Sequence record: ON922918
From: Escherichia phage vB_EcoM_PD328
Length of the DNA: 59,156 nt
Direction: 5' to 3' (one strand)
Position numbers and translations under genes: made by a program. The notes beneath the pieces were generated by a model that worked only from the letters and a program-made list of their open reading frames with translations, searched no databases and was not told the DNA's origin. Shown here one piece after another: positions 40,748-59,156 of the stretch (its first letter is position 1; each line of letters opens with the position of its first letter).

Positions 40748-40758
40748 GGAGAAATAAT

Positions 40759-41908: not shown

Positions 41909-41925
41909 AGATGGAGATTTATAAC

Positions 41926-42387: not shown

Positions 42388-42904
42388 GAAAGACGATATG
42401 TCTAATGTTATTAAAGATGCAACTGTCAAAGGTACTATTGCAGTCGAAGACGGTGCTGTGAAAGGTATCACTGTGGAACAGCTAATTGTGGAGCTTCTTA
42501 CTGACACTGCTCAAATGCCACGATTTGCTACTCCTGGTTCTATGTGCTTCGACATCTACGCGGATGAACCTGAACCTGTGACAATCTATGCTGGTCGTGC
42601 GTACACGTTCAACACGGGTATTAAGTTGCAGATCCCTCATGGTTATGGCATGGAAGTCTATTCACGTAGCGGTCATGGGTTTAAACACGGGATTCGTTTA
42701 GGTAACTGTATTGGTATCATTGATCACGATTACCGTGATGAGTTGAAAATACGTCTGCACAACGACTCTTATGCACCTTACACGGTCCAGGTTGGCGAAC
42801 GTATTGCACAGGCGCGTCTTGTGGAGCTGGTTCGTATGCGTATTGTTTCTGGTGTAGTAGAAGAAACAAATCGCGGTGGTTTTGGTTCTACTGGTAAGTT
42901 GTAA
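42380..42904 (+). CDS. dut: dUTP diphosphatase (dUTPase)
   Basis: Conserved dUTPase motifs: RSGHGFKHGIRLGNCIGIIDHDYRDE and C-terminal RGGFGSTG. Confidence 0.75.
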   Translation: MPKKDDMSNVIKDATVKGTIAVEDGAVKGITVEQLIVELLTDTAQMPRFATPGSMCFDIYADEPEPVTIYAGRAYTFNTGIKLQIPHGYGMEVYSRSGHGFKHGIRLGNCIGIIDHDYRDELKIRLHNDSYAPYTVQVGERIAQARLVELVRMRIVSGVVEETNRGGFGSTGKL

Positions 42905-42979
42905 TCATACTTAGGGGTATTTACAAGGAATTTAATTCTAAGTATTATACCCCTACTAGCAAACAACGAGGGCGATAAC

Positions 42980-43405
42980 ATGGTCCAGTTACCAGAAATG
43001 AACTTAACTGAAGAGCAGAAATACGAACTTCTTTATAAGTGGTATTCTAAGAAAGAAGAATTAGCCAAGGTGCAAGCGCAAGAACGCGCACTGCGTCAAA
43101 GTGTAGTTAGCGTCTTCTTTCCTGATGGTCTTAACGAAAATACTAATAAGATCAAACTTGATACAGGTGACGATCTTGTTGTTACTCAACCTTATACGCG
43201 TAAAGTCGATAAGGCGATCTTTAGTCAAATCTTACCAGATCTTATTGAAGCTGGTGTGGATGTCAACGAAGTTACTGAAACTAAAGTGGAACTCCGTGTG
43301 GCTGCATATCGTAAGCTGACAGCTGAACAGTTGGCGATCTTTGACGAATGCGTGACCACAACTCCAGGTTCTCCACAAGTTAAGATCGCTGTTAAGAAGG
43401 GTTGA
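42980..43405 (+). CDS. hypothetical protein
   Basis: 141 aa ORF. Confidence 0.4.
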   Translation: MVQLPEMNLTEEQKYELLYKWYSKKEELAKVQAQERALRQSVVSVFFPDGLNENTNKIKLDTGDDLVVTQPYTRKVDKAIFSQILPDLIEAGVDVNEVTETKVELRVAAYRKLTAEQLAIFDECVTTTPGSPQVKIAVKKG

Positions 43406-43996
43406 ATGCTCATCACGATAATATCGGATGCGTCGTTCTGTCACCGTACTAAATGTGGAGGCTATGGAATTTGGGTAGCCTCCAAACGGGGTAAGAAGGC
43501 TTTTGGTGGCCCTGCACATGGTCACACGGATAATACCGTAGTTGAATGTATTGCAGTAGCTAACGGTTTATATCACGGTATAGAGGCTGGACTTATCTAC
43601 ACAAACGACGTTATATTGTTTCAGACGGATTGCAAAGCAGCTATCCACATGTTCGAAGGTAAACGTCCACCAAGAGGAGAAGAGCAACAGATTTATAAAT
43701 GGTTCATGGATACTATTGTTGAGAATAGGCTTAGTTTCCAGTTCCGTCATGTTAAAGGTCATTCAGGTAGGATGGATTCCCGTAGCCTTGCACAAGACAA
43801 GTGCGATGAAATTGCGGGTATGCACATGCGAACAGGTAGACGTCGCATGGACTACGATAAATTGAAAGTAGATACAGCAAAATCCGTTATTCCTAAACCG
43901 AAGAAAGTTAACATTGAGAAACAGCAATCTTGGGTTAGGAAGTTAAAACTTCTTGTTCGGGAACACACAAAGGTAAATTTCAATGGCTCGATTTAA
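43406..43996 (+). CDS. ribonuclease H
   Basis: RNase HI-like catalytic residues in order: ISDASF (Asp), VVECIAV (Glu), FQTDCKA (Asp), HVKGHSG, DKCDEIA. Confidence 0.65.
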   Translation: MLITIISDASFCHRTKCGGYGIWVASKRGKKAFGGPAHGHTDNTVVECIAVANGLYHGIEAGLIYTNDVILFQTDCKAAIHMFEGKRPPRGEEQQIYKWFMDTIVENRLSFQFRHVKGHSGRMDSRSLAQDKCDEIAGMHMRTGRRRMDYDKLKVDTAKSVIPKPKKVNIEKQQSWVRKLKLLVREHTKVNFNGSI

Positions 43997-44927
43997 ACCT
44001 TATCTAGCAACAGATTGGGATTCAGCTAAACAGAAATATCCCGTAGGCGTCATGCCTAAAATTGACGGAGTTCGTGGGATGAAACCGTTTGGGGAGCTTG
44101 TTGGGCGAAGTCTTAAATCTTTTGCAAATAAGCAGGTCGCAAAGGTATTTGGATCTTCCATTTACGATGGCATGGACGGTGAGCTTGCCGTTGGAGAAGA
44201 AACGGACTTTGACTTATGTCGTAAGACAAGTAGTGCAACATCTAAAATTGAAGGTGAATACGTTTGGACGTGGCATGTATTTGATTTGTGTGAACCAAGC
44301 GTTGCACATCTGCCGTACAAAGAGCGGTACGACATGCTTAAGAAGTATGTGGACGAATGCCATGCTAACGGTGAGTTGATGGACGTGAAGGTTGTGCCGT
44401 TGTATGTGGTCAACAACGAACAAGAACTCCTGGAGTGGGAAAATATTTGGCTTGATATGGGGTACGAAGGTGTAATCATTCGTGACCTTGAAGCAAAATA
44501 TAAATGGGGTCGTAGTACGCAGCGTGAAGGCGGTTATCTCCGCATTAAACGTTTCACTGATGGTGAAGGTGAGATCATTCGTATCATCGAAGGTTGCACC
44601 AATGCAAATGAGGCTCAGATTAACGAATTAGGACAGACGTTCCGTTCATCCCATCAGGAAAATATGATTCCAAATGGTATGGTTGGCTCATTTGATGTAC
44701 GTGTGCTTACAGTACCAGAAGGACTCGAAGATCTTATTGAAGTCGGGCAAGAGATGCGTGTAGGTGCTGGTCGTCTTACGCACGAAGAACGTAAATATTA
44801 CTTTGAGCATCCTGATGAATTTATTGGGAAGATTTCTAAATGGAAATTCTTTGCTCACGGTATGAAGGACAAATTGCGTATTCCTACGCATCAAAGTTTC
44901 CGTGATCCAACGGATATTAGTGAATAA
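43983..44927 (+). CDS. ATP-dependent DNA ligase
   Basis: Motif I KIDGVRG (active-site Lys), DGELAV, EGVIIR and LRIKR motifs in canonical order. Confidence 0.8.
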   Translation: MARFKPYLATDWDSAKQKYPVGVMPKIDGVRGMKPFGELVGRSLKSFANKQVAKVFGSSIYDGMDGELAVGEETDFDLCRKTSSATSKIEGEYVWTWHVFDLCEPSVAHLPYKERYDMLKKYVDECHANGELMDVKVVPLYVVNNEQELLEWENIWLDMGYEGVIIRDLEAKYKWGRSTQREGGYLRIKRFTDGEGEIIRIIEGCTNANEAQINELGQTFRSSHQENMIPNGMVGSFDVRVLTVPEGLEDLIEVGQEMRVGAGRLTHEERKYYFEHPDEFIGKISKWKFFAHGMKDKLRIPTHQSFRDPTDISE

Positions 44928-44991
44928 TCACGTTTGCATTCAGGGTAATTGGGTCCTAGTATTGCAGCCGTAACCACACAAGAGGTAACTT

Positions 44992-45738
44992 ATGCAATTT
45001 ACAACTACCGCTCAAGCAGTTCTGGACACTGGTGTTAAGATGCTTGTGTATGGTGAATCTGGTATGGGTAAGACCATGCTTACAGCAACTCTTCCAAGAC
45101 CGTTGCTGATTTCTGCGGAGTCTGGGCTTTTATCTTTAACACCGAATAACATTGCTCGTGTATTTGGTGAAAACAGACCAGATATCTGCTACGATATTCC
45201 AACCATCACGGTTGAAAATATCCAGGATGTAGAGCAGGCTTATGTTTGGGCGACTAACCCTGCAAACAATCCTGTAGGTGAAGATGGTTTACCGCGCTTT
45301 CAGTCTCTTGCGCTGGATTCACTTACTGAGATTGCTGAAAAGTGCCTTAACAATGCGAAGCGTACTGTGAAAGATCCGCGTCAGGCTTATGGGGATCTTA
45401 TTGAGAAGATGCAAACTTTAGTTCGCGCTTTTCGAGATATCCCTGGACTTAACGTGTACATGGCAGCTAAAATGTCCCGTAACAAGGACGAGTTGACAGG
45501 TATTACGTCTTACGGTCCTTCTATGCCTGGTGCAAAATTAGGTCCAGAATTACCATACTTTTTTGACGAAGTGTTCAAAATTAGTGTTGGTAAAGACCAA
45601 AATACTCAAGCAGATTTTCGTTATCTGCTGACCAGACCAGATCTGTCAAATGTATGTAAAGATCGTTCTGGTTCGTTAGAACAGATGGAATATCCACATC
45701 TTGGTGCAATCATTAACAAAATCAAAGGGGTACAATAA
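44992..45738 (+). CDS. RecA-like AAA ATPase (Sak4-like recombination protein, putative)
   Basis: 248 aa; Walker A GESGMGKT near the N-terminus; Walker B-like LALD; size typical of phage Sak4-type ATPases. Confidence 0.5.
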   Translation: MQFTTTAQAVLDTGVKMLVYGESGMGKTMLTATLPRPLLISAESGLLSLTPNNIARVFGENRPDICYDIPTITVENIQDVEQAYVWATNPANNPVGEDGLPRFQSLALDSLTEIAEKCLNNAKRTVKDPRQAYGDLIEKMQTLVRAFRDIPGLNVYMAAKMSRNKDELTGITSYGPSMPGAKLGPELPYFFDEVFKISVGKDQNTQADFRYLLTRPDLSNVCKDRSGSLEQMEYPHLGAIINKIKGVQ

Positions 45739-46664
45739 TGGCCGGTTTAGGAATGCAATTTAACGCTGGACAACACGCAGAGCGTCAACACAATAGCTTG
45801 ATGCCCGCTGGTTGGTATGTTGTTCAGATTGTAAACTCTGAAATCAAACCGACTAAAACTCCAGGCGGTGCGCGTCTGAATCTTCAGTTTAAGATTATGC
45901 AGGGTGATTTTGCTGGTCGTGTAATGTTTGGCGGTTACAACGTCAAGAACGCGAACCCTGTCGCTGTACAGATTGCAATGGAAGAACTGGCAGAGCTGTC
46001 CCGTGCTGTTAAAGTTCCAGTTTGGAACGATACCGAACAACTGCACGGTATTCCGTTCAACCTGAAAGTGAAAGTTCGTCAGCAACCTGGCTATGAGCCA
46101 AACAACGAACCTCAGATTTATCAAGCAATTGATAATATGGAAGGTGTTGTATACGCAACTAAGGCGGACATGGCTAACCTGCCTAAATCAACTCCGGCAG
46201 CGGCAGCACAGTCTCCAGCATTTGGTGGTGGTGCGTTCGGTGGTACTCAGCAGCCACAGCAGCAACCGCAGCAGGGTTTCCCTGGTGCATTTGGGCAGCA
46301 GCCGCAGCAACAGCAGCAGCAGCAGCAACCTCAGACTCAGGGGTTCCAGCAGCAAGTACAGCAACAACAGCCGCAGCAGCCGGTACACCAACAGCAGCAA
46401 CCGCAGCAGTCTGGAACAGTTGATTTTAACAGTGCGGCACAATCTCAACCGTGGGTTAATGGTGCTCAGCAGCAGACTCAGCAGCAACCTAACTGGGCAA
46501 CTCAGCAGGTACAGCCTGGAGCAGAGCAACCACAAACTCAAGCTCAGAATACTGGTACTGCTAACCATGCAGAACCTGAAGTCCAGGATGATATCGCTAA
46601 AGCAGCTCAGACCAAGACTCCACCATGGAAACGTTCCACTGAAGGCGATGACGCTGCACAGTAA
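45738..46664 (+). CDS. hypothetical protein with Gln/Pro-rich low-complexity linker (possible ssDNA-binding protein)
   Basis: Folded N-terminal domain of about 150 aa, then a Gly/Gln/Pro linker encoded by CAG/CAA repeats (46250-46420), then an acidic C-terminus; architecture resembles bacterial SSB but lacks a DIPF tip. Confidence 0.4.
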   Translation: MAGLGMQFNAGQHAERQHNSLMPAGWYVVQIVNSEIKPTKTPGGARLNLQFKIMQGDFAGRVMFGGYNVKNANPVAVQIAMEELAELSRAVKVPVWNDTEQLHGIPFNLKVKVRQQPGYEPNNEPQIYQAIDNMEGVVYATKADMANLPKSTPAAAAQSPAFGGGAFGGTQQPQQQPQQGFPGAFGQQPQQQQQQQQPQTQGFQQQVQQQQPQQPVHQQQQPQQSGTVDFNSAAQSQPWVNGAQQQTQQQPNWATQQVQPGAEQPQTQAQNTGTANHAEPEVQDDIAKAAQTKTPPWKRSTEGDDAAQ

Positions 46665-46683
46665 TTAAAAATCATGTTATAAT

Positions 46684-46710
46684 AAAGCTCCTCCGGGAGC
46701 TTTATTTTTC
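46684..46710 (+). terminator. rho-independent terminator
   Basis: AAAGCTCC-TCCG-GGAGCTTT hairpin followed by ATTTTTC. Confidence 0.65.
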
Positions 46711-46726
46711 TATATAGGGTTATGAT

Positions 46727-47677
46727 ATGCCACATTTTTATCCTGCTACTAAGACAATGGAGTTATTCAATGACTGTATTGAACGAGATCAAGGATCCGC
46801 TTACAGAGTATGGCTCGGAAAAGTATTACCGCATATTGAAGACGCATATCGAGAGGGAGATGGCGGATTCCGTTCGCATCTTGGGATTAGTCTTATCGGG
46901 CAAGAATGTAGTAGAGCAATCTTCTACGGATGGAGATGGGCAACTAAACCACACTTTAACGGTAAAACCTTACGTCTATTCAATCGCGGGCATCTTGAAG
47001 AAGGTCGTTTCGTGGCCTTACTACTTACCGCCGGTATGCAAGTCATCCAACAAGACGAAAATGGCAGCCAGTATCGAGTCAGCTATCTCAACGGGCACTT
47101 TGGATCTGCAATAGATGGTATTGTCATTGGTTGCCCTGACATGCCACAACCTTCTACACCAATCTTGACGGAAATGAAAACGCACAATAACGATTCGTTC
47201 AAGAAACTTGTCGTTAATGGTGTGATGGAATCCAAATGGGAGCACTATGTTCAGATGCAGGAATACATGTTGTATTATGGACTCCCAGCCGCTCTTTATA
47301 TTGCAGTTAATAAGAACACGGATGAGATTTGGGCAGAGCTTGTACCGTTTGATAAAGAAACCGCAGAACGCTACAAAGACCGTGGATTTGTAATTGCACT
47401 AGCAGAATGCCCACCACCTAAGATCAATGAAAGTAAATCCTACTATAAATGCAAATGGTGTGACCACAAGGCGGTGTGCCATAACAACAAAATGCCTGAA
47501 GTTAACTGCCGTACATGTAAACACTCATACCCGCTTGAAGATGGAACCTGGAGATGTGCAATTAAGGTAGCTTCCGCTACTGCATACATCACCGATGGAA
47601 CAGAAGGTGTGTTAACGAAGGAAGATCAGATGGCAGCATGTGGTCAATACGAAGCAGCAGATTATTACGGTGAGTAA
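46727..47677 (+). CDS. PD-(D/E)xK exonuclease, Cas4/RecB-like with predicted Fe-S cysteine cluster
   Basis: IDGIV ... TEMKTH fits D...E-x-K; Cys at GQECSRA plus C-terminal CKWCDHKAVC (C-x2-C-x5-C) matches the four-cysteine arrangement of Cas4/AddB-type nucleases. Confidence 0.5.
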   Translation: MPHFYPATKTMELFNDCIERDQGSAYRVWLGKVLPHIEDAYREGDGGFRSHLGISLIGQECSRAIFYGWRWATKPHFNGKTLRLFNRGHLEEGRFVALLLTAGMQVIQQDENGSQYRVSYLNGHFGSAIDGIVIGCPDMPQPSTPILTEMKTHNNDSFKKLVVNGVMESKWEHYVQMQEYMLYYGLPAALYIAVNKNTDEIWAELVPFDKETAERYKDRGFVIALAECPPPKINESKSYYKCKWCDHKAVCHNNKMPEVNCRTCKHSYPLEDGTWRCAIKVASATAYITDGTEGVLTKEDQMAACGQYEAADYYGE

Positions 47678-49681
47678 ATGTTCAAACTACGTGATTATCA
47701 GCAAGAAGCTGTAAATAGTACATTGCGCTATTTTATCAAGCATGGTGAAAAGTCAGGAAATCCTGTTATCTTGTTGCCTACAGGGACTGGTAAGTCCCTT
47801 GTAATTGCTGGTCTATTAAAGACAATTCATGATAATTGGGGTAGTACCCGCATGATGGTAATTACTCACGTAAAAGAATTGATAGACCAGAACCACGATA
47901 AGTTCAAGAAGTTATGGCCTGAAGCACCGACTGGTATTTATAGTGCTGGTATGGGTCGCAAGGATAAGAACGCAATGATAACGTTCGCAGGTATTCAGTC
48001 TGTTGCAAAACAAGCTAAATACTTTGAGGACGTTGATATTATTATAGTGGACGAATGTGACCTTATTAGTCCAAATCAGCAAACAAGTTATCAGAAGTTC
48101 TTTGCACATATCCGTGAAAAGAACCCATATCTAAAGATTATCGGTCTTACTGCTACAAGCTGGCGTCTTGGTTTTGGTTCTATTATCAAAGATGACTATG
48201 CTCCTAATGCTCTATTTGATGAAATCGTATTTAACGCGTGTACTGTAGAGTGCTTCAACTGGTTTATTGATGAAGGTTATCTGGTTCCATTAGTACCACG
48301 TAAAACAAAGAAAGAGTATGATGTAAGTGGTGTTCATACTCGAGGCGGTGAGTTCATTGAAAGTGAACTTCAGAAGGTTGTAAACGACCCTGATGTAACA
48401 CGCCATTTGTTAGATGATGCGATTAGTATTGCGGAAGAAGAGGGCAGAATGAGTTGGCTTATCTTTTGTGCTGGTGTAGACCATGCAAAAGATGTAAAAG
48501 ACTATCTCAATGAACGCGGTATTAGTTGCGAAGTTGTAACTGGTGATACACCGAAAGCCTTGCGTGACCAGTACCTCATTGACTTTAAAGCTGGTCGTTT
48601 GCAGGCAATAGCGAACAACAACGTATTGACCACAGGCTTTGACCATCCTGGTCTTGACTTGATAATTGGTATGCGCCCGTCCCAATCTTCCCGCTTATGG
48701 GTTCAGATGCTTGGACGTGGTACTCGACCTGATTATGCTGATGGTTTTGATTTGACCACAACGGAAGGTCGTTTGCAAGCTATCTCCGCTTCGCATAAAC
48801 AGAACTGTCTTGTACTAGACTATGCGGGTAATACAAGACGTCTTGGACCTATTAACGACCCTGTAATTCCTAAGCGTCCAGGGCAGAAAGGAAAGTCCGC
48901 TGCACCTGTTAAAGAATGCCCGGTATGTAAAACCTGGAACCATGCGTCGGTTCGCTATTGTGGTGGGTTAAAACCATTCGATACAAGCAGTATGTCCCAT
49001 GAAGAAATACTCTATCTTCAAGGATTAGGGTATACCATTACAAATAATAAAGCGTGTCGTGCTGGTTATTGCGGTCATGAGTTTACTTTTGAGAAGAAAC
49101 TGATGGCGAGTGCTAGTACGAAAGCTATTATCAAGAATGATTTACCAGTCACTGAGGTATTGAAAGTTGATATGGTGAGTTACTATCGTCATGAGAACAG
49201 GGGTGACCGTTCTAAGCCACCAACACTTCGTGTCGATTATCTTTGTGGCTCACAAACTATTCAACAATATATTTGTCTGTTCCATACTGGCTTTGCAGGC
49301 AAGAAAGCGCGTAACTGGTGGCGCGAGCATTGCAGCTTGGCAATCCCAGCCAACATTGACGAAGCTCTTAATGTGGTCAGCCAACTCCGTGTACCGACGC
49401 ACATCTATGTCAACTTGAAGGGTAAGTTCCCTGAAGTGTTGAATAGTTGTTATGACGGTAGTGAGTTTGGTAAGAAAGAAGCAACTAATGAACGTCCGGT
49501 TGTACAAATCGCGGCAATGAATGGCTTGTCCCAGTTTGGTGGAAGTTATACGAATAAGTTTGATGAAGACGAGCAGACTGATTCTCGTACGACAGTGTTG
49601 CATTCTACGTCTAATCAACCTATTCTTACTGGTAACGGTAAAGAGCTACCACCAGATTTTGATGACGACATTCCATTTTGA
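47678..49681 (+). CDS. SF2 DEAD/DEAH-box-type helicase with SSB-like C-terminal tail
   Basis: Walker A LPTGTGKS, motif II VDECDL, helicase C-domain motifs; protein ends ...LPPDFDDDIPF, identical to the conserved C-terminal tip of E. coli SSB. Confidence 0.7.
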   Translation: MFKLRDYQQEAVNSTLRYFIKHGEKSGNPVILLPTGTGKSLVIAGLLKTIHDNWGSTRMMVITHVKELIDQNHDKFKKLWPEAPTGIYSAGMGRKDKNAMITFAGIQSVAKQAKYFEDVDIIIVDECDLISPNQQTSYQKFFAHIREKNPYLKIIGLTATSWRLGFGSIIKDDYAPNALFDEIVFNACTVECFNWFIDEGYLVPLVPRKTKKEYDVSGVHTRGGEFIESELQKVVNDPDVTRHLLDDAISIAEEEGRMSWLIFCAGVDHAKDVKDYLNERGISCEVVTGDTPKALRDQYLIDFKAGRLQAIANNNVLTTGFDHPGLDLIIGMRPSQSSRLWVQMLGRGTRPDYADGFDLTTTEGRLQAISASHKQNCLVLDYAGNTRRLGPINDPVIPKRPGQKGKSAAPVKECPVCKTWNHASVRYCGGLKPFDTSSMSHEEILYLQGLGYTITNNKACRAGYCGHEFTFEKKLMASASTKAIIKNDLPVTEVLKVDMVSYYRHENRGDRSKPPTLRVDYLCGSQTIQQYICLFHTGFAGKKARNWWREHCSLAIPANIDEALNVVSQLRVPTHIYVNLKGKFPEVLNSCYDGSEFGKKEATNERPVVQIAAMNGLSQFGGSYTNKFDEDEQTDSRTTVLHSTSNQPILTGNGKELPPDFDDDIPF

Positions 49682-49688
49682 GGCTTAT

Positions 49689-49928
49689 ATGGCAAAAATG
49701 ACTTTTAGGAGTAATGACCATTTACCAGAAGAAGGTGAATGGAAGACTTTTAAAGAGTGGGAAGAGTTAGGCTATGGTGTAATTAAAGGTGAAAGAGCTA
49801 AACGGTTTATTCACGGTGTTGCAGTTTTTCACGAAAGTCAAGTAATCAATATTGAAGACGAGTTCGAAAAATATAAACGTGAAGAACTGCAAGGAATGTA
49901 TTGCGGACCAGAATGGTGGAAGGATTAA
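49689..49928 (+). CDS. hypothetical protein
   Basis: 79 aa from the ATG at residue 57 of the track ORF. Confidence 0.35.
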   Translation: MAKMTFRSNDHLPEEGEWKTFKEWEELGYGVIKGERAKRFIHGVAVFHESQVINIEDEFEKYKREELQGMYCGPEWWKD

Positions 49929-50651
49929 ATGTATATCTTAGTTGATTATGATCGGATGCAGGTATTAGCCAAACATCCAAACTTCCAACGTCTTCATGAG
50001 TATGGAATTCTGTGTTGTAGCGAAAGCTCTGTAGTCCTTCCGTTGGAAGTTGAAGAACTGTATAAAGAGTTTGATGATGTGCAAATGCAACTCTTGTACA
50101 TCAACTTAACGGGTAACAAGCAAGGTGCTTTATATCCAAAGAAAATGATCAGTAAGATCATTCATTATTTTTTAAATGAGATACCGGAGACAGTAATAGA
50201 TGCGGATGTGGCTGAACAAGCGGACTGGGCAATTGCTAGTAATAAAGAGGGTGAGTGCATGTACCGCGAAGGCAGCTCTGTTCCAGATTTGGGGGAGGAG
50301 CCTAATATTCAAGTACGGAATGATAGTTCATTGGAATCCACCATCATTGACGGCCCAACCGTACAAACAAACATGGGCATACAACGGGCATGGACACCGA
50401 CAAAAGAGCGGCAAGGTACTAGCACACCGGCAACCGAAAAACGTGCCGCAACGTCGCGTACAGCCGGCACTCGCGATATTATTTTCGCTATTGCTGACGA
50501 AATGTGGAAAGAAGCTGGTGAACCTCGTGACAAGAAGGAAATCCTTCAGCTTAGAAAACAAATGATGGATCGTTTAGAGGCACAAGGTGTGAAGCGTAAT
50601 ACATCAAGTAATACATTAGGGGTCTGGGTAAAAGAACGTGGCTTAAATTAA
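49929..50651 (+). CDS. hypothetical protein
   Basis: 240 aa ORF; basic C-terminal region. Confidence 0.4.
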   Translation: MYILVDYDRMQVLAKHPNFQRLHEYGILCCSESSVVLPLEVEELYKEFDDVQMQLLYINLTGNKQGALYPKKMISKIIHYFLNEIPETVIDADVAEQADWAIASNKEGECMYREGSSVPDLGEEPNIQVRNDSSLESTIIDGPTVQTNMGIQRAWTPTKERQGTSTPATEKRAATSRTAGTRDIIFAIADEMWKEAGEPRDKKEILQLRKQMMDRLEAQGVKRNTSSNTLGVWVKERGLN

Positions 50652-50663
50652 TTAACTAAAATA

Positions 50664-50692
50664 TTGCATAGTTCTTTTAGAGGGGTTATAGT
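50664..50692 (+). promoter_or_regulatory. sigma70-type promoter (TTGCAT-17 bp-TATAGT)
   Basis: Near-consensus hexamers with a 17-bp spacer, about 55 nt upstream of the 50748 gene. Confidence 0.55.
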
Positions 50693-50747
50693 GCAACCAC
50701 TTAGAACGTAGTTCACAACCAATAACCACACTGTGAGGATTTAAATC

Positions 50748-51572
50748 ATGGCTAAAGAGAAAACTCCAGAGCAACTGGAAGCAGAAGAAGCAGCAAAGAA
50801 AGCAGCAAAAGAAGCTGAAGCAAAGAAAAAACGTGAAGCTGAAGAAAAAGCAGCACGTGAATTGCAGGCTAAAGTTGATGCCGCAATGAACGAAGCCACT
50901 GCCGGTTACAATGTGATCGAAGGTGTTGTGTCCGCTGTTAAAGAACAGTTTGACACTCTGCACGAAGGTTCGTTGCTGGACGAAGTTAAAGCAGTTGAAG
51001 GCGTAGTTACCGCTCAACTGAAGACCGCTAAAGAAGGTCTGAAAGCTGTTAAAGCAGCAGCACGTAAAGTTAAAGACAACGATCAACTGAAAACTGCCGT
51101 TGCAGCATCTGAAGATCTGGTTTCCGGTGTTGAAGCCACTCTGAAAGATGTTAAAGGCCGTGTATCCGCTGCCCGCGAAGCCACTAAAGCCGCTGAAAAA
51201 GCGAAACGTGACGCTGAACGCGCTGAGAAGAAACGTCTGCAAGACGAAGAGCGCGCTCGTAAAGCAGCAGAACGCGAAGCTAAGAAAGAGCCGGAACAGA
51301 ACGGTATTCGTAAGCCTGGTGTTGGTACTCTGTGCCGTGCTGCATGGGACATCTTTGATGCTGTTACCCTGGAGCTGGGCCAGACTGCACCGATCAGCTA
51401 CGTTCTGCCGGTTGCACTGGACAAAGGCCTGAACGAAGCGAACGTCAAAGCAGAATACGCTCGCTGGAAGAAATACATGGGCATTACTGGTCGCGTATCA
51501 GTTCCAGTACCTGCTAATATTGCACAGGCGGCCGCTAACGTAGAAATTCCGTCTCAGAAATCTGCAGAGTAA
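50748..51572 (+). CDS. Lys/Ala/Glu-rich coiled-coil protein of unknown function
   Basis: 274 aa; highly charged helical N-terminal two-thirds, distinct C-terminal domain of about 90 aa; own promoter and terminator; codon usage typical of highly expressed genes. Confidence 0.45.
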   Translation: MAKEKTPEQLEAEEAAKKAAKEAEAKKKREAEEKAARELQAKVDAAMNEATAGYNVIEGVVSAVKEQFDTLHEGSLLDEVKAVEGVVTAQLKTAKEGLKAVKAAARKVKDNDQLKTAVAASEDLVSGVEATLKDVKGRVSAAREATKAAEKAKRDAERAEKKRLQDEERARKAAEREAKKEPEQNGIRKPGVGTLCRAAWDIFDAVTLELGQTAPISYVLPVALDKGLNEANVKAEYARWKKYMGITGRVSVPVPANIAQAAANVEIPSQKSAE

Positions 51573-51596
51573 TCTGTAGACACTTCGGAAACTCAG

Positions 51597-51622
51597 AAGG
51601 GGCATTTACTGCCCCTTTGTTA
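51597..51622 (+). terminator. rho-independent terminator
   Basis: AAGGGGCA-TTTAC-TGCCCCTT hairpin followed by TGTTATC. Confidence 0.5.
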
Positions 51623-51640
51623 TCTTACCCCGAGGTTCAA

Positions 51641-52405
51641 ATGTTTGCACAAGCCATTATCGCCCACCACTGGGCTCAAGCCAAATTTGGAAATCATATG
51701 AAAATTATTAATACTCAGGAACCTGAGAAGTTAGTTCGTGAACGTGGTATTCTTGACGTACATTCCATTTTTCATACCATTCAAGGCGAAGGCCCATTTT
51801 GTGGTCAACCTGCCGTATTCGTTCGATTAGCTGGTTGTAACCTGCAATGCCCAGGTTGCGATACAAACTATACGTCCAATCGTAAGAAAATGAGTCACAG
51901 TGATATTTGGCAAGAAATTGTTCGTGTCACTGGTGAAGCCAAGACTAAATTAGTTGTCATTACTGGTGGCGAACCTTTCCGTCAACCTGAAGTTGCTAAT
52001 TTTATCAACTACCTTATTGATATGAAAGGATATCGTGTGCAGGTTGAAACTAACGGAACTATGCCTATCCCGCGTGAACTCAACTATAACTGTGTGGTAG
52101 TATGTAGTCCTAAGGCAGCAAAGATTCACCCTAGCGTTTCCGCTCGAGCAAATGCTTTCAAATATGTAATGAAAAGCGGAAACGTCAACGAGGAAGATGG
52201 ATTACCGTTGCAGGCACTGGATCACCGTGCAACACCATTTATCGCACGTCCGCCTGTACACTTTAAAGGTAATATTTATCTTCAGCCTATGGATGAACAG
52301 GACGACGATGCTAATAAAGCAAACGCTCAAGCTGTCGTTAAATACGCAATGAAACATAATTATATCGTGCAATTGCAAGTTCATAAGTATTTAGGGGTTG
52401 AGTGA
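51641..52405 (+). CDS. queE: 7-carboxy-7-deazaguanine synthase (QueE, radical SAM)
   Basis: N-terminal HTIQGEGPFCGQPAVFVRLAGCNLQCPGCDT (QueE-type cysteine cluster) and VVITGGEPF; start taken at the ATG at residue 9 of the track ORF. Confidence 0.75.
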   Translation: MFAQAIIAHHWAQAKFGNHMKIINTQEPEKLVRERGILDVHSIFHTIQGEGPFCGQPAVFVRLAGCNLQCPGCDTNYTSNRKKMSHSDIWQEIVRVTGEAKTKLVVITGGEPFRQPEVANFINYLIDMKGYRVQVETNGTMPIPRELNYNCVVVCSPKAAKIHPSVSARANAFKYVMKSGNVNEEDGLPLQALDHRATPFIARPPVHFKGNIYLQPMDEQDDDANKANAQAVVKYAMKHNYIVQLQVHKYLGVE

Positions 52406-52656
52406 TGCGTGTAAAAGCTCTGTTTAAGACTACTAAAGTTATTGAGTTTCATGGTATTAAATTGACAGTTCCAAATTGGGTCACCTATCTTGCTTGTGAT
52501 AAAAACGGAACTCTGATGGGTTATGAAGGCGGGCCAATACATTGTAATGTGGAATATGGTCGTTGGGTTCCTGATATTGATGTTGGTTATTACGAGAAGA
52601 TTGCAAAAGTTGATCTTGAAGGGTTAGATTGGACTCGAACGTTGATTAAGGTATAG
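52402..52656 (+). CDS. hypothetical protein
   Basis: 84 aa ORF, start overlaps the QueE stop. Confidence 0.35.
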   Translation: MMRVKALFKTTKVIEFHGIKLTVPNWVTYLACDKNGTLMGYEGGPIHCNVEYGRWVPDIDVGYYEKIAKVDLEGLDWTRTLIKV

Positions 52657-52773
52657 AATGAAGTTATACGTTTTTGAAAACGCGTGGATGATCCCTGCCG
52701 CTAATGATCATTATGCGGGCGACGGTCAGCGTGCTAAAAGATACAATGTGTTCAACTAATAAGGTAAATTATT

Positions 52774-53526
52774 ATGATCAAATATGTCCAATTACTTGGT
52801 GAGATTGTTCCAGAAGATGTATTGAATAAGTGTCTGTTCGATGAAGACGGATTTGTAAAACATTATGTAGATACACCTTCACAGTTTGCATCTCACTCGG
52901 CTCTTGGATTTGTAATTCGAGCTGGATATGCAGTGGATGTGTTGAACGACATGAGTCCTACAGTCACTGTTTTTGTTGAAGGTATGGACGTACATGATCT
53001 TATGAATTTAAAGACCGTTTATAATACTCACGTCACGCCACCACGTAATGCACTTTACAAATGGCGTATCAATACTTCTGTTAGCAGAAGCCAGAAAGCA
53101 GCAGAAGAGAATGCCAAGAAGTATACGACATCTACTCAGAAATTAGCTTGTATGATGGACGATCTACTTAAAAACGCCTTTAAAGTTGAGCGGGACAAAG
53201 AAGGTGAGCCAGAAGTATTCATTAATGAAGCATTAATTAAAAAGGATCGTATCCAGGAGATTAAAGCTCCGCGTCCGAATAAATATATGCGCAAAATTAA
53301 AACTTTTGAATCGCATGATATTAACGGTAGCCCGATTGAAATTGATGTATGGGTTGACGTGTACGACGTAATTAAAGCATTCAATGTAACCAGTGGGCCC
53401 ATGCAACATACACTGAAGAAAGTGCTGTGTGCTGGTGAGCGCGGTCATAAAGACTTGCTGCAAGACCTCAACGACATTATTGCATCCGTTGAGCGTGAAA
53501 TTGAAATGGTTAAGGAAGGTAATTAA
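52774..53526 (+). CDS. hypothetical protein
   Basis: 250 aa ORF between queE and the Gat-QueC gene; no recognised motif. Confidence 0.4.
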   Translation: MIKYVQLLGEIVPEDVLNKCLFDEDGFVKHYVDTPSQFASHSALGFVIRAGYAVDVLNDMSPTVTVFVEGMDVHDLMNLKTVYNTHVTPPRNALYKWRINTSVSRSQKAAEENAKKYTTSTQKLACMMDDLLKNAFKVERDKEGEPEVFINEALIKKDRIQEIKAPRPNKYMRKIKTFESHDINGSPIEIDVWVDVYDVIKAFNVTSGPMQHTLKKVLCAGERGHKDLLQDLNDIIASVEREIEMVKEGN

Positions 53527-53527
53527 T

Positions 53528-54943
53528 ATGTGCTCTATCTTTGGTGTTATTACTAACGGTCAACCTGAAAGTCTTATCATTCGTAACGATATCAATGATC
53601 TTATTAAGGCTAGTATCAACCGTGGTCGTGACGGTCTTGGTGTACGCTTTACGCATGGTGACCACAGTATGCACCCGCAACGTATCGTCAGTGTCGGTAA
53701 GCAAACATCGCTGGAACGTCTTGTTAAAGTCGGGCGCATTACATCTCACGCTGGAGCTATTGGTAGCTTCACAATGATTGGTAACGCTCGCGCCGAACCG
53801 ACTACAGAGTGGGTTATTGACAAGAATGAGTGGGACCAGCAACCGTATCATATGGATGGTTGGACTATTGTTCATAACGGTACTATTGCGAACGATAAAG
53901 ACCTTCGTACCTATGCACTACAGACTAAAATTGATAGTGCTGCCATTGTTGAACAGTTAGCAGAATGTACACTTTCAGCGGATGAAATGTGTTTGTCTGA
54001 CTTTAATTACCTGTACAGTGTATTTCATGAAGTTATTCGTAAATTGAAAGGTAGCTTCGCAATCCTTGCAACACATGATTCCTTTCCGGGATGTGTGTTT
54101 ACAGCATGTAATTATCGTCCAATCTGGATCGGTAAGACTGATACTGGTATGTATTTCGCCAGCCAGGAAGACATGCTACCAACCCGTGCGATTAAGCAGA
54201 TGCTGAAACCTTATTCATGTAATGTGGTTACATCTACTGATGTATGCAATGAAGTTGATCTTATTCCAAATAAACAGACTCAACGCGCGTTAGTTGTCGC
54301 CAGTGGTGGCATGGACAGCACGGTGGCAGCTCAGATGTGCAAGTCCAATGGTCTGGAAGTCACTCTGATTAACTTCCAGTATGGTTGTCGTGCAGAAACT
54401 AATGAGTTAAAGGCTATTCGTAAGATTGCGGAAGTGATGGAAGTTCCGTTAGTTGAGTTCCCAATTCCAATCTACGATAAGAAAGACAGCCCGTTATTTG
54501 ATCAAGATGCTGCAATTGCTGGTGGCGAAGAAGGTGCTGAGTTTGCCCACGAATGGGTTCCAGCTCGTAACCTTGTGATGCTTTCTGTTGCTACTGCATA
54601 CGCAGAAGCTAACGGTTTCGACTATATTGTTCTTGGTAACAACCTAGAAGAAGCTGGAGCCTATCCGGACAACGAGCCTGAGTTTATTAACCGCTTTAAT
54701 CAGGTGCTACCATTCGCTGTAGGCGACGGTAAGCGCGTTGAAGTGCTCATGCCTGTAGGTAACTTAATGAAGCATGAAATTGTCGCTACAGGCCTGCGTT
54801 TAGGGGCCCCGCTTGAGCACACCTGGAGCTGTTACCGTAACGGGGATTTGCATTGTGGTACTTGCGGCCCTTGCATGATGCGTCGGACTGCGTTTAATAT
54901 TAATAACGCACAAGAAGTTATTAAATACGAAAGCGAGGCGTAA
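53528..54943 (+). CDS. queC: glutamine amidotransferase-QueC fusion protein (Gat-QueC)
   Basis: Starts MCSIFGV (N-terminal Cys nucleophile of class II amidotransferases); C-terminal half has the QueC PP-loop VVASGGMDST and zinc-binding CYRNGDLHCGTCGPC. Confidence 0.75.
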   Translation: MCSIFGVITNGQPESLIIRNDINDLIKASINRGRDGLGVRFTHGDHSMHPQRIVSVGKQTSLERLVKVGRITSHAGAIGSFTMIGNARAEPTTEWVIDKNEWDQQPYHMDGWTIVHNGTIANDKDLRTYALQTKIDSAAIVEQLAECTLSADEMCLSDFNYLYSVFHEVIRKLKGSFAILATHDSFPGCVFTACNYRPIWIGKTDTGMYFASQEDMLPTRAIKQMLKPYSCNVVTSTDVCNEVDLIPNKQTQRALVVASGGMDSTVAAQMCKSNGLEVTLINFQYGCRAETNELKAIRKIAEVMEVPLVEFPIPIYDKKDSPLFDQDAAIAGGEEGAEFAHEWVPARNLVMLSVATAYAEANGFDYIVLGNNLEEAGAYPDNEPEFINRFNQVLPFAVGDGKRVEVLMPVGNLMKHEIVATGLRLGAPLEHTWSCYRNGDLHCGTCGPCMMRRTAFNINNAQEVIKYESEA

Positions 54944-55267
54944 ATGAATAAATTGAGCAGCTTGGCAAGGATGGGTATAGCCCACAAGTGTTTCGGTAAT
55001 CCAATTCCTCAACAGGCTTATGATTTAATCGAAGCCGTTGAAGAAGCTATTTTGGACTTCAATCCTCAGTTGAAAGTGAATAAAGAAATTTACAAAGGAC
55101 ATAAATCACTTGAAGACATGATTAAAAGTCACATATCCGTATGGCGAGATGCGTTAGAAAAACTACATGAAGAGTCAACAGAACCGGATGATATAAGTTA
55201 TTATGCTCATGAACTTAGAGCACTCGCAGAGATTGAAGCAGCAGTTAAAGCAAAGTTAGGAGAATAA
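54944..55267 (+). CDS. hypothetical protein
   Basis: 107 aa ORF between the queC and queD homologues. Confidence 0.35.
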   Translation: MNKLSSLARMGIAHKCFGNPIPQQAYDLIEAVEEAILDFNPQLKVNKEIYKGHKSLEDMIKSHISVWRDALEKLHEESTEPDDISYYAHELRALAEIEAAVKAKLGE

Positions 55268-55268
55268 A

Positions 55269-55790
55269 ATGGGTTACACTGTTATTCGTTCACATGAGAT
55301 TTGCGCTGGTCATCGTGTTGTAGGGCATGAAAGTAAATGTCGCCACCTTCACGGTCACAACTATAAGTTCCATTTTAAAGTTGCGCCGAAGAAGACATTG
55401 TCGGAAGGTTACGTTAAGTCTGTAAGTGGATTTGCTCTAGAAGGATCCTTGGACGATGTAGGTCGCGTTATCGACTTTAGTGTGGTTAAAACTACACTCT
55501 GCCAATGGTTGGAAGATAACTGGGATCATAAGTTCCTGCATTGGAATCGTGATAATTTGATTGACGCTTTAAAAATTGCAGCAAGTCGCCCGAGTTGCCC
55601 TCTGGAACATGAAGACCATGAGCATTTCTTAAACTCGTTGGTAGCTTTACCATTCAACCCAACTGCGGAAAACTTAGCTGCATATATGGTTGACGTAATT
55701 GGTCCTCAACTGCTTGACCAATATGGTGTTGAATTGGTAGAATGCACCATTGAAGAAACGTCCAAATGTCATGTTAACTATTGCAAATAA
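55269..55790 (+). CDS. queD: 6-carboxy-5,6,7,8-tetrahydropterin synthase (QueD-like)
   Basis: CAGHRVVGHESKCRHLHGHNY zinc-binding Cys/His pattern typical of QueD/PTPS. Confidence 0.7.
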   Translation: MGYTVIRSHEICAGHRVVGHESKCRHLHGHNYKFHFKVAPKKTLSEGYVKSVSGFALEGSLDDVGRVIDFSVVKTTLCQWLEDNWDHKFLHWNRDNLIDALKIAASRPSCPLEHEDHEHFLNSLVALPFNPTAENLAAYMVDVIGPQLLDQYGVELVECTIEETSKCHVNYCK

Positions 55791-55816
55791 TTGACCACAC
55801 AAGGAAACTGCAAACC

Positions 55817-56431
55817 ATGAATGAATTTACAAAGATGACAAACCGAGCAGAAATTTCGCACAGTATTGAAAAGATTTTAAAGTTGATTGAAGGTGGCGAT
55901 GACTTGCGTGAAGGTTTAGTTGAAACTCCATTGCGCGTCGCTAAAGCATTTGAGACGTGGTTCGGGGGTTATTCTGTCGATATCGCATCCCTGTTCAAGA
56001 CATTTGAAGATGGTGGGGAAAACTGCGATGAAATGGTCATCGTCCGTGATATCCCTGTCTACAGTCATTGTGAGCATCATATGGCTCCTATTATTGGTCA
56101 TGCTGTGGTCGGGTATGTCCCGAATGGAAAAATTGTTGGCCTAAGTAAGTTATCTCGTGTGGTTGATGCTTTTAGCCGTCGTTTGCAAGTTCAGGAGCGT
56201 CTGACTAACCAGATTGCGGATGCTATCGTGGAACACTTAGACCCAAAAGCTGTGTGTGTTTACATTGATGCAAAACATATGTGTATGGAGTCGCGCGGTG
56301 TTAAACAAGTGTGTGGAAGCTCAACCATTACTAAAGCATTCCGTGGGCGTACTGCATTGGGCGATGGTGTATTACCTGATGTGACGGGTGACACATGGCG
56401 TCGGGAATTTCTTGAAGCGTGTAAAAAGTAA
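55817..56431 (+). CDS. folE: GTP cyclohydrolase I (FolE)
   Basis: Conserved SHCEHHMAP active-site motif and GTP cyclohydrolase I-like flanking regions; start at the ATG at residue 13 of the track ORF. Confidence 0.75.
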   Translation: MNEFTKMTNRAEISHSIEKILKLIEGGDDLREGLVETPLRVAKAFETWFGGYSVDIASLFKTFEDGGENCDEMVIVRDIPVYSHCEHHMAPIIGHAVVGYVPNGKIVGLSKLSRVVDAFSRRLQVQERLTNQIADAIVEHLDPKAVCVYIDAKHMCMESRGVKQVCGSSTITKAFRGRTALGDGVLPDVTGDTWRREFLEACKK

Positions 56432-56466
56432 CTGATTTGCGAATCATACATTATCTTTAATATAAT

Positions 56467-56491
56467 AAGCGCCTACGGGCGCTTATTTGTT
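56467..56491 (+). terminator. rho-independent terminator between folE and the DpdA-like gene
   Basis: AAGCGCC-TACG-GGCGCTT hairpin followed by ATTTGTT. Confidence 0.6.
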
Positions 56492-56500
56492 AGGTGAACA

Positions 56501-57454
56501 ATGCACAGAGAAGACATCAACTATACCTTTCAGATTTATATGGCTGCCGTGTATACGAACAGCTATAAACCGGGAATGAACCGCTATGTTAAACTCAACG
56601 AACAAGAAAAACGTGTTGTCGAAAATATTCCAAACATTCTTGAATCCTGGCACTACGTTGGAAAGCAATCATATGTTGATGCCATGCGTGCCGATGGGGC
56701 CAAGATATTCCTCGACTCCGGAGCGTTCTCAGCTTACACTTTGGGAGTTACGTTATCAGTTAAAGAATACTGCGATTATATCCAACGAAACATAGATATC
56801 ATTCGTGTAGAGGATGGTTCACTTATGGCTTCTGTACTCGATGGTATCGGAGATCCACTTCAAACGTGGCGCAACCAGGAAGAGATGGAAGCCAGGGGTG
56901 TAAGACCTTTACCATGCTTCCACGCGGGTGAACCTTTTGAATACCTGGACCATTATGTGCGAAATTATGAATACATCACTCTTGGTGGTCTTGTTGGAGC
57001 GAGTACACAACAACTCCAGGTATGGTTGGACAGGGTATGGGATAAACACCTTGTGGACGGTAGTGGGCGCGCGAAGATTAAAGTTCACGGATTTGGTATT
57101 ACGTCCCGTCCACTTATGGAGCGTTACCCGTGGTACTCTTGTGACTCATCCTCCTGGATCCAATCTGCAGCGTTCGGTGCTATTGAAACGCCTAAATGGG
57201 GGCCAATGCAGGTATCAGAAAAGTCTCCGTCACGTCACTATCAAGGGCAGCATATTTGTAACCTTTCAGAAATAGAACAGAATAACGTTCTACGCTACTT
57301 AGAGGAGTCAGGTTTCACATACGAGCGACTTTCAACGATATACGAATCACGCGCTGCATATAATTTATGGGCGTATGGTGTGGTCAACGCTATGATTCTT
57401 GCTAACCACAATGGGAAGTTCAACGAACGTCTCCAGGATTTATTTGACGAGTAA
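56501..57454 (+). CDS. dpdA: DpdA-like 7-deazaguanine DNA transglycosylase (TGT superfamily)
   Basis: TGT-fold-like motifs IFLDSGAFSA and VHGFG; immediately downstream of the preQ0 biosynthesis genes. Confidence 0.6.
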   Translation: MHREDINYTFQIYMAAVYTNSYKPGMNRYVKLNEQEKRVVENIPNILESWHYVGKQSYVDAMRADGAKIFLDSGAFSAYTLGVTLSVKEYCDYIQRNIDIIRVEDGSLMASVLDGIGDPLQTWRNQEEMEARGVRPLPCFHAGEPFEYLDHYVRNYEYITLGGLVGASTQQLQVWLDRVWDKHLVDGSGRAKIKVHGFGITSRPLMERYPWYSCDSSSWIQSAAFGAIETPKWGPMQVSEKSPSRHYQGQHICNLSEIEQNNVLRYLEESGFTYERLSTIYESRAAYNLWAYGVVNAMILANHNGKFNERLQDLFDE

Positions 57455-57462
57455 GGTTACTT

Positions 57463-58455
57463 ATGGATTTACTTGATGCTTTAAAGTTTGTTCAGGGTTC
57501 TGTAGCTAAGAAAGAACTCCAGGAAGGTTTAACTCACTTCCGTATTGTTGATGGTACTGTTCGCGGGTTCAACGGAACTATTTCATTGTGTAGCCCAGTA
57601 CCTTTGAACATTGACTGTACACCGAAAGCTGAACCAATGCTCAAGGCTATTGCAGCATGTGACGAAGCTGTACAGATGACAATGTTAGCGAACGGTAAGT
57701 TGAGCATTAAGTCTGGTGGCTTTAAGGTTAGTGTAGATACTCTTCAGAAACCAACTGCACACGTAGAGCCAGAAGGAACGATTCACGAAATAGACGGTCA
57801 GCTTTTTCTTAACGGTTTAAGCCGCGTAACGCCGTTTATAAGCGACGATGCTTCCCGCCCGTGGTCTTGTGGCGTGCTGGTAAAACAGGGCAGCATGTAC
57901 GCGACCAACAACGCTAGTATTATACAATATTGGTTCGGTGCTGTGTTCCCTGTTGATTGTGTTGTACCACGTATGGCCATCAAAGAATTATTGCGCATTA
58001 AAAAGCCACCAGTAAGAATTCAATGTACAGATACCAGTATGACATTTCACTACGAAGACGGTTGCTGGTTGCGTACCCAATTGCTGGAATTAAAGTGGCC
58101 CAACATTGACAAGATAATTGAGCGTACAGAAAAGGGGTCTGACGTCTATACGCTTGATACTGAACTTTTTAACTGCTTAGAGAAAATAAAACCGTTCTGT
58201 GAACGTGATGGGCGTATTTATATGGAAAATGGCGTCGTGCGTACCCATTACAACGAGCTGGACGGTGCTAGTGCAATGTTCCGTGAATCCAAGTCAATTG
58301 GCGTGTATAATATAGATCTTATTATGCAGTTGAAAGGACTTGCAACGGATTGGGACGCTTCTCGTTTCAATGAAAAGGACGAAAGGGGTCTTTCAACTCC
58401 TATTATTTTTTATGGTGAAAATCTACGTGGGGTAATTGTAGGATTTCGTCTATGA
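57463..58455 (+). CDS. DNA polymerase sliding clamp, beta-clamp (DnaN)-like (putative)
   Basis: 330 aa; pattern similarity to bacterial beta clamp over three repeated domains; directly upstream of, and overlapping by 4 nt, the DNA polymerase gene. Confidence 0.45.
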   Translation: MDLLDALKFVQGSVAKKELQEGLTHFRIVDGTVRGFNGTISLCSPVPLNIDCTPKAEPMLKAIAACDEAVQMTMLANGKLSIKSGGFKVSVDTLQKPTAHVEPEGTIHEIDGQLFLNGLSRVTPFISDDASRPWSCGVLVKQGSMYATNNASIIQYWFGAVFPVDCVVPRMAIKELLRIKKPPVRIQCTDTSMTFHYEDGCWLRTQLLELKWPNIDKIIERTEKGSDVYTLDTELFNCLEKIKPFCERDGRIYMENGVVRTHYNELDGASAMFRESKSIGVYNIDLIMQLKGLATDWDASRFNEKDERGLSTPIIFYGENLRGVIVGFRL

Positions 58456-59156
58456 GAAAAGATGCTATTGGTTTCTTTTGGGAGGATTTACCTCCCGCTA
58501 AGAAAGAGAAGAAACAGAAAGTAAAACGTCAACCAGTTGAAAGGGTATGGGAGCGCCCAGACTACCTTCCAGGTCTTGATGCAGCAATGCGTTTTGCAGC
58601 TAACGATCCGCGTATGACAGACGGTGAGTTAGTGGAGATGTATTTTGCACAAGAAACGTTCGTATACGATATCGAATGCTATAAGAACTATTTTCTTGTA
58701 GCGTTTAAAGGGGTTAAGTTCGGTAAGGTTTATTATCTAGAAATGACTGCCGGTCAGACACTTGACACGGAAAAGTATGAATGGATAATGAAGAACTTTC
58801 GTACCGTTGGTTTCAACTCAAGAAACTACGATAATACGATGACATTCCTTGCCATTGCGGGTCTGACTGTTGACAAGCTGAAAGAAGCAAGTGACAGGAT
58901 GATCCAGGAAGAGTGGGCCCCGTGGGACGTTCTCAACAGTTTTGGTGTGGAGCAGTTTTGGATTGACCACATTGACGTTCAAGAAGTAGCGCCTGGCTTC
59001 GGTTCACTGAAGCTGTATGGTGGCCGTATGCACATGCAGAAGCTCCAGGACTTACCGTTCCCAGCGCATTGGGCGCTGTCCATAGAGCAGATTGCTATTG
59101 TGCGCTTCTACTGTATTAACGACCTTGATACAACAATGGCTCTGTTTAACTCACTG
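58452..59156 (+). CDS. DNA polymerase, 5' part (continues at position 3 across the window join)
   Basis: ORF runs to the window end with no stop; contains an exonuclease-I-like FVYDIE motif; last 125 nt identical to the first 125 nt and in frame with the 3..1394 ORF. Confidence 0.7.
   Translation, partial: MRKDAIGFFWEDLPPAKKEKKQKVKRQPVERVWERPDYLPGLDAAMRFAANDPRMTDGELVEMYFAQETFVYDIECYKNYFLVAFKGVKFGKVYYLEMTAGQTLDTEKYEWIMKNFRTVGFNSRNYDNTMTFLAIAGLTVDKLKEASDRMIQEEWAPWDVLNSFGVEQFWIDHIDVQEVAPGFGSLKLYGGRMHMQKLQDLPFPAHWALSIEQIAIVRFYCINDLDTTMALFNSL

Follow-up and report, generated by a model that had tools for sequence, protein, structure and literature searches.

Fusions of a class II glutamine amidotransferase (GAT) domain to QueC were first found in Crenarchaeota, where GAT-QueC acts as an alternative archaeosine synthase and yields archaeosine (G+) in transfer RNA (tRNA) upon expression in Escherichia coli (PMC5485725, PMC6884629). 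Archaeal and phage GAT-QueC form one cluster in published similarity networks (PMC6884629) and differ in their target, which is tRNA via arcTGT for the crenarchaeal enzyme and DNA via DpdA for the phage enzyme. In Enterobacteria phage 9g, the clustering of dpdA and gat-queC led to a prediction that was followed by mass spectrometry, in which 25% of the 9g deoxyguanosine (dG) proved to be the deoxy form of archaeosine (dG+) (PMC5699537). Here, we analyzed a gene at positions 53528..54943 of a stretch of 59,156 nucleotides (nt) from Escherichia phage vB_EcoM_PD328 (PD328; record ON922918), the whole of which we refer to as the window. Its product is identical at 454 of 470 residues (97%) to the 9g Gat-QueC protein (AHN84522), and the BASEL Nonagvirus records annotate the orthologue as "dPreQ0 and archaeosine synthase Gat-QueC". 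We are highly confident that the gene is the gat-queC of a Nonagvirus phage, and that it encodes a bifunctional enzyme in the phage's own pathway from guanosine triphosphate (GTP) to dG+ (FolE, QueD, QueE, Gat-QueC, and DpdA). Gat-QueC is a named, published, and experimentally characterised enzyme, and the PD328 protein is therefore already known and not new.

The experimental basis is a study by Hutinet et al. 2019 (PMC6884629), in which E. coli expressed genes of 9g and in which Gat-QueC and DpdA proved sufficient for dG+ in the DNA of this host. The 9g dpdA alone gave 84-790 residues of dPreQ0, the deoxy form of the nitrile base 7-cyano-7-deazaguanine (preQ0), per 10^6 nt, and 9g dpdA with gat-queC gave 22,750-45,000 dG+ per 10^6 nt, which equals 9-18% of plasmid guanine (G) (PMC6884629). 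The dG+ yield was about equal in a delta-queC host, showing that Gat-QueC stands in for the host QueC, and resistance to EcoRI, a proxy for modification, was gone in a delta-queD host (PMC6884629). The authors concluded that having Gat-QueC in place of QueC shifts the DNA base from dPreQ0 to dG+ (PMC6884629). A preliminary description of the PD328 locus, made from the sequence alone, had proposed that the final base may not be plain preQ0, and this proposal is supported by the 97%-identical 9g protein, which together with DpdA gives dG+ in DNA (PMC6884629). Because of this identity to a protein for which dG+ was shown, we read the PD328 DNA base as archaeosine and not plain preQ0. The same description had offered two products, 7-amido-7-deazaguanine (ADG) and an archaeosine-type base; the second agrees with the dG+ found for 9g and the first does not, the deoxy form of ADG (dADG) having been below detection (PMC6884629). 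On the strength of the 9g mass spectrometry, we rejected both ADG and plain preQ0 as the final base.

Each of these two products nevertheless has an argument in its favor. An ordinary QueC reaction requires ammonia (PMC13329287) and many PP-loop enzymes recruit a glutaminase for that alone, so that the GAT domain might merely feed a standard reaction that ends at preQ0 and leaves dPreQ0 in DNA. We consider this very unlikely, given that dPreQ0 was at or below detection when the 9g gat-queC was present with dpdA and that the product of the 97% orthologue was dG+ (PMC6884629), and given that the dPreQ0-making sister genus Seuratvirus has a plain QueC of 235 amino acids (aa), with an identity of only 29% and with canonical motifs. 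The enzyme might instead halt at the amide and leave dADG in DNA, as in Campylobacter phage CP220 and QueC* phages; two canonical motifs of its QueC half are without their His and their Cys, respectively, and dehydration could in principle suffer from this loss. The probability of this is even smaller in our view, as dADG stayed at <6 per 10^6 nt with all of the 9g constructs, while dG+ reached tens of thousands (PMC6884629).

The gene and its parts are as follows, with invariance counted in an alignment of 54 database homologues (>=52% identity) that was also the basis of an AlphaFold2 model:

53512..53519, + strand: Shine-Dalgarno-like AAGGAAGG, read off the sequence, with the ATG 8 nt downstream
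53528..54943 (stop codon counted in), + strand: gat-queC, a 471-aa fusion in one open reading frame (ORF), with an ATG-TGC start and a protein beginning MCSIFGV
53531..53533, + strand: Cys2 codon TGC, the predicted nucleophile of an N-terminal nucleophile (Ntn) glutaminase after removal of Met1; invariant in 54/54 homologues
53528..54262, + strand: class II (Ntn) glutamine amidotransferase domain, residues ~1-245, from Pfam, profile, and fold matches
54284..54943, + strand: QueC (PP-loop ATP pyrophosphatase) domain, residues ~253-471, from Pfam, TIGR00364, solved-QueC, and fold matches
54302..54319, + strand: PP-loop SGGMDS (S259-S264), whose S, G, G, D, and S show no variation among the 54 homologues
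54380-54406, + strand: altered YxQxHxxE region, Y285-E293, from the alignment of the 54 fusion homologues
54662-54673, + strand: altered YPDC region, Y379-N382, from the same alignment
54830..54874, + strand: predicted zinc site C435-x7-C443-x2-C446-x2-C449, whose four Cys are invariant in the 54 homologues and line up with the cysteines clustered in solved QueC

The preliminary description had identified a class II GAT-QueC fusion, and this identification holds in domain searches (GATase_7 and QueC) and in the predicted two-domain fold (template modelling (TM) scores of 0.77 and 0.79 for the two halves). The model has a mean predicted local distance difference test (pLDDT) score of 86.6 and a predicted TM (pTM) score of 0.81, and the protein matches phrog_10428 end to end (expectation value (E) 1.5e-286). 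All catalytic motifs are intact (Cys2, RGRDG, NxRAEPTTE, HNGTxAND, D136, SGGxDS, VPARN, and the four Cys). Compared with 9g Gat-QueC, which is of equal length, the PD328 protein carries 16 substitutions, which are mostly conservative and of which none falls in a catalytic motif.

A Cys directly after Met is a hallmark of Ntn-type amidotransferases and had been noticed here in the MCSIFGV start, for which the position of the start codon matters. The reading frame of gat-queC is open for 33 codons further 5', to a GTG at 53429 (53429-53527, + strand), and for this reason a mechanical ORF list gives a protein of 504 aa. This extension lies within the preceding gene, whose TAA stop (53524-53526) ends 1 nt before the gat-queC ATG, and the ATG is preceded by the Shine-Dalgarno-like site. 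A Met-Cys N-terminus is found in 54/54 aligned homologues, down to 52% identity, and also in the fusions of Klebsiella, Alteromonas, Xanthomonas, Pseudomonas, Providencia, and Microbacterium phages. We therefore rejected the GTG as the true start, because it is inside the upstream gene and because Met-Cys is conserved; neither a downstream nor another alternative start is supported. ORF callers can over-extend this gene, and the lengths of 493-542 aa that the database gives for several homologues may reflect such mis-starts. The open upstream frame and these longer database entries are what could speak for an annotation artefact, in which the real start lies elsewhere or two separate genes were joined, so that there would be neither a Met-Cys N-terminus nor a fusion. 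However, the 33 upstream codons fall inside another gene, the ATG has its own Shine-Dalgarno-like site and lies 1 nt past the upstream stop, the Met-Cys start recurs in all aligned homologues and in phages of the host genera named above, and no stop codon separates the GAT and QueC domains in what is a single uninterrupted ORF. Taken together, we regard an artefact as so improbable that it can be practically discounted.

The N-terminal half scores as an amidotransferase, as the fusion assignment demands. GATase_7 (Pfam) matches residues 96-217 with 29.1 bits, above the gathering cut-off of 25, and positions 1-199 of the NCBIfam GlmS model align to Gat-QueC residues 1-218 (E 3e-11). A profile built from nine phage N-terminal halves matches the glutaminase domain of E. 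coli GlmS (1xff) with E 5e-8 and, more weakly, PurF; in the profile search, the Met-Cys of Gat-QueC aligns to the Met-Cys of E. coli GlmS 4amv, placing Cys2 at GlmS Cys1. Superposition of the modelled N-terminal half (AlphaFold) on 1xff_A gives TM 0.77 and a root-mean-square deviation of 3.4 A. Residues of the glutaminase half that are invariant among the homologues are C2, R32-G-R-D-G36, N86, R88-A-E-P-T-T-E94, H116-N-G-T119, A121-N-D123, and D136-S137, and the catalytic set of class II (PurF-type) enzymes is present among them (C2, R32-G-R-D35, H116-N-G118, and D136), aligned with the matching GlmS segments. In the light of GlmS and PurF, we take these invariants to be the N-terminal nucleophile, the Arg of RGxD, the oxyanion hole formed by Asn-Gly, and an Asp that contacts the amino group of the substrate.

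The C-terminal half is a QueC with the SGGMDS loop (residues 259-264) and the Cys-rich zinc site of four invariant Cys that the preliminary description had noticed. Pfam QueC matches residues 253-458 (E 1.4e-56), TIGR00364, the NCBIfam QueC equivalog, barely exceeds its cut-off (151.6 versus 150.3 bits), and the solved QueC structures 2pg3 (E 6e-13) and 3bl5 (E 3.5e-11) are matched as well. In the AlphaFold model, this half superposes on Bacillus subtilis QueC (3bl5_A) with TM 0.79. The earlier statement that no stand-alone QueC is present also held, as tblastn with each protein half found no second QueC or GAT copy in the whole 59,156-nt window.

A 2026 survey gives the canonical QueC signature motifs as SGGxDS, YxQxHxxE, VPxRN, YPDC, and C(x)8CxxCxxC (PMC13329287). 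The fused half shares with stand-alone QueC (3bl5, 2pg3, and Seuratvirus) the SGGxDS loop, the VPxRN motif (V344-P-A-R-N348, invariant in the 54 homologues), the four-Cys zinc site, and the fold, and it departs from stand-alone QueC in three places. For YxQxHxxE it has Y285-G-C-R-A289-E-T-N-E293, with a family pattern of Y-G-(C/S)-R-A-x3-E, in which the Gln position is Cys or Ser (26 and 28 of 54, respectively) and the His position is Ala in 54/54. For YPDC it has Y379-P-D-N382, with Asn in 54/54 fusion homologues, and the first spacer of its zinc motif counts 7 residues instead of 8 (C-x7-C for C-x8-C), with all four Cys present. In contrast, the Gln, the His, and the YPDC Cys are retained in the solved QueCs (2pg3 and 3bl5) and in the stand-alone QueC of Seuratvirus, an enzyme type that has no GAT domain and whose product ends at preQ0. 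We suggest that the motif changes may be connected with the additional step that forms the amidine or with the entry of ammonia. On the biochemistry or structure of Gat-QueC, the literature we found from after 2019 holds restatements only, and the 2026 survey of the QueC family omits the fusion (PMC13329287); the departure of the fused QueC half from two motifs is a small addition to the literature found. Just ahead of YPDN lies the segment LEEAGAY (residues 373-379; 54644-54664), in which L373 is at least 90% conserved and E374-Y379 are invariant. It is the sole segment of the AlphaFold model with pLDDT <50, which would fit a mobile loop, perhaps at the active site or between the domains.

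The enzyme most probably works as follows. Once Met is removed, Cys2 would hydrolyse glutamine by means of its free amino group and its thiol, and ammonia would be released; the QueC domain would use adenosine triphosphate (ATP) to take 7-carboxy-7-deazaguanine (CDG) through the amide to the nitrile level (preQ0); and a second glutamine-derived ammonia would be added to give the formamidine, archaeosine. DpdA would swap guanine in the phage DNA for the deazaguanine base, turning about a quarter of G into dG+, and dG+ in the DNA would block many restriction enzymes of types I and II. Orthology to 9g shows that Gat-QueC does the work of QueC and also forms the amidine, with DpdA placing the base in DNA. 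By analogy with asparagine synthetase B (AsnB), ammonia would be handed on inside Gat-QueC. AsnB and the beta-lactam/carbapenam synthetases are built on the same plan, in which an N-terminal Ntn (Cys1) glutaminase precedes a PP-loop ATP pyrophosphatase; the latter activates a carboxylate, which ammonia then attacks. Carbapenam synthetase 1q15 is among the fold matches of the Gat-QueC model. In AsnB, an ammonia tunnel between the two domains is established. The synthetase domain of Gat-QueC differs in being of the QueC type, with a zinc site and a deazapurine as substrate. The AsnB model TIGR01536 scores 28.1 bits over the GAT part only, against a cut-off of 267.1, and because this is so far under the cut-off we treat the likeness to AsnB as one of mechanism and not of membership. 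Membership in the AsnB or the GlmS family was rejected, as only the glutaminase half matches and the scores lie far under the cut-offs.

With regard to the order of steps, we lean somewhat toward the amidine being made on the free base, before insertion by DpdA, over conversion after insertion. This leaning rests on three observations, namely that no preQ0 pool is released, that the protein has no nucleic-acid-binding module, and that the family is acidic. The 9g gat-queC fails to restore queuosine (Q) in the tRNA of a delta-queC host (PMC6884629), and therefore no free preQ0 pool that QueF could use is released. In Pfam searches and the AlphaFold model, we found no nucleic-acid-binding module in Gat-QueC, as the GAT and QueC domains fill the whole protein. 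The PD328 protein has a net charge of -15.5 and an isoelectric point of 5.25, and 54/54 family members are acidic (-4 to -25).

Alternatively, Gat-QueC could make preQ0, DpdA could insert preQ0, and Gat-QueC could then amidate dPreQ0 within the DNA to dG+. We see this order as a serious possibility, albeit the less probable one. It would parallel ArcS/RaSEA and QueF-L, which carry out the same net chemistry from the preQ0 nitrile to the formamidine but are not relatives of Gat-QueC and use preQ0 that is already part of tRNA (PMC5485725, PMC5699537); the archaeal enzymes interchangeable with Gat-QueC act post-insertion in tRNA (PMC6884629, PMC5485725, PMC5699537), and a later paper calls DpdA1 the enzyme 'which inserts preQ0 into DNA'. 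On the other hand, the missing complementation of delta-queC for Q by the 9g gene indicates that preQ0 is not freely released (PMC6884629), the modified base is ~30-500 times more abundant with Gat-QueC (PMC6884629), and a protein with no DNA-binding domain from a strongly acidic family would be acting on DNA. It is important to point out that three considerations weigh against our own interpretation. The dG+ product of PD328 would follow from its 97% orthologue in 9g; the 9g authors left conversion before or after insertion undecided (PMC6884629, PMC5699537); and 9g DpdA alone inserts preQ0 unaided, which keeps a route open in which preQ0 goes in first and is amidated on DNA (PMC6884629).

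A more specific version of synthesis on the free base, which we put forward tentatively and consider less likely than not, is that Gat-QueC never releases preQ0, that a remodelled pocket lets glutamine-derived ammonia attack the ATP-activated amide or the bound nitrile, and that the free G+ base is what DpdA inserts. The remodelling would, with the same reserve, consist of the Gln to Cys/Ser, His to Ala, and Cys to Asn changes that are fixed across the fusion clade. If true, direct G+ synthesis would settle the question of conversion before or after insertion, and phage Gat-QueC would be mechanistically unlike ArcS and QueF-L, which act on nucleic acid.

The genomic neighborhood places the gene within a folE-queD-queE-dpdA cluster, where it takes the place of a stand-alone queC. 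The neighboring genes are as follows:

51641..52405, + strand: queE, 7-carboxy-7-deazaguanine synthase of the radical S-adenosylmethionine (SAM) type, from Pfam Radical_SAM and Fer4_12, phrog_2076 (QueE-like; E 1.9e-69), and a position as that of 9g_00008; its ATG was picked to agree with the 254-aa 9g protein
52402-52656, + strand: 84-aa ORF overlapping the queE stop by 4 nt; phrog_1972, unknown function
52774-53526, + strand: 250-aa protein between queE and gat-queC; phrog_18443 (E 1.7e-150), unknown function, with no Pfam match
54944-55267, + strand: 107-aa ORF between gat-queC and queD, whose ATG abuts the gat-queC stop; phrog_24659 (unknown function) over residues 44-107 only
55269..55790, + strand: queD, 6-carboxytetrahydropterin synthase; Pfam PTPS (E 7e-21) and synteny with 9g_00005
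55817..56431, + strand: folE, GTP cyclohydrolase I; Pfam GTP_cyclohydroI (E 3e-62) and synteny with 9g_00004, with an ATG that gives 204 aa as in 9g
56501..57454, + strand: dpdA, DNA 7-deazaguanine transglycosylase; 316/317 aa identical to 9g DpdA (AHN84519) and phrog_887 (E 2e-98)

The 9g gene has the same neighbors, with queE upstream and queD, folE, and dpdA downstream, and the DpdA proteins are 99% identical; the 107-aa ORF between gat-queC and queD is found in PD328 and not in 9g. This interval holds three small ORFs in FritzHoffmann and two in Klebsiella phage vB_Kpn2-P2, and seems to be a site of variable gene content within the modification cluster. A small ORF similar to the 84-aa one also follows queE in FritzHoffmann. 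The gene for the 250-aa protein, whose C-terminal ~120 aa are common to several other unannotated PHROGs, is present in 9g (9g_00007) but not at that position in Alteromonas phage R7M, where queE adjoins gat-queC. Further upstream, a 308-aa ORF (45738-46664, + strand) has a C-terminal half that is a long Gln/Pro-rich low-complexity region with QQQQ runs.

At the DNA level, gat-queC is 92-95% identical to 17 phage records, all from 9g-like phages of E. coli and Salmonella that share the gene order, and the records examined among these 17 belong to the genus Nonagvirus, subfamily Queuovirinae. The final 19 kb of the window (40000-59156) are collinear with these 9g-like phages at ~94%, and the best DNA identity to any deposited phage over this part is ~94-95% (BRET, JenP1, and SE1). 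In this 19-kb comparison, no record identical to PD328 was found in the phage collection searched, and PD328 may lie near the Nonagvirus species boundary. More widely, full-length Gat-QueC fusions occur in 65 phage records, and a large protein search gave hundreds of full-length metagenomic fusions, with contigs of 55-68 kb, close to the genome size of these phages, carrying many of them. No archaeal names were among the best 120 database matches, few of which carry any name, and for this reason we take the relationship to the archaeal enzymes from the literature. As published, the crenarchaeal protein is likewise a class II GATase fused to QueC (PMC6884629, PMC5485725).

Overall, our findings show PD328 to be a typical representative of a phage genus that is well described. 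It is published for 9g and its relatives that dG+ shields the DNA of Nonagvirus from many restriction enzymes of types I and II, and resistance of these phages to restriction-modification systems of both types has been seen in vivo (PMC8594841). Because dG+ protects against restriction, gat-queC is relevant to the host range of phages and to their engineering. The order and the chemistry of amidine formation are a question for the whole family, not for the PD328 sequence in particular. For PD328 itself, the presence of gat-queC marks the phage as a Nonagvirus that almost certainly carries dG+ in its DNA.

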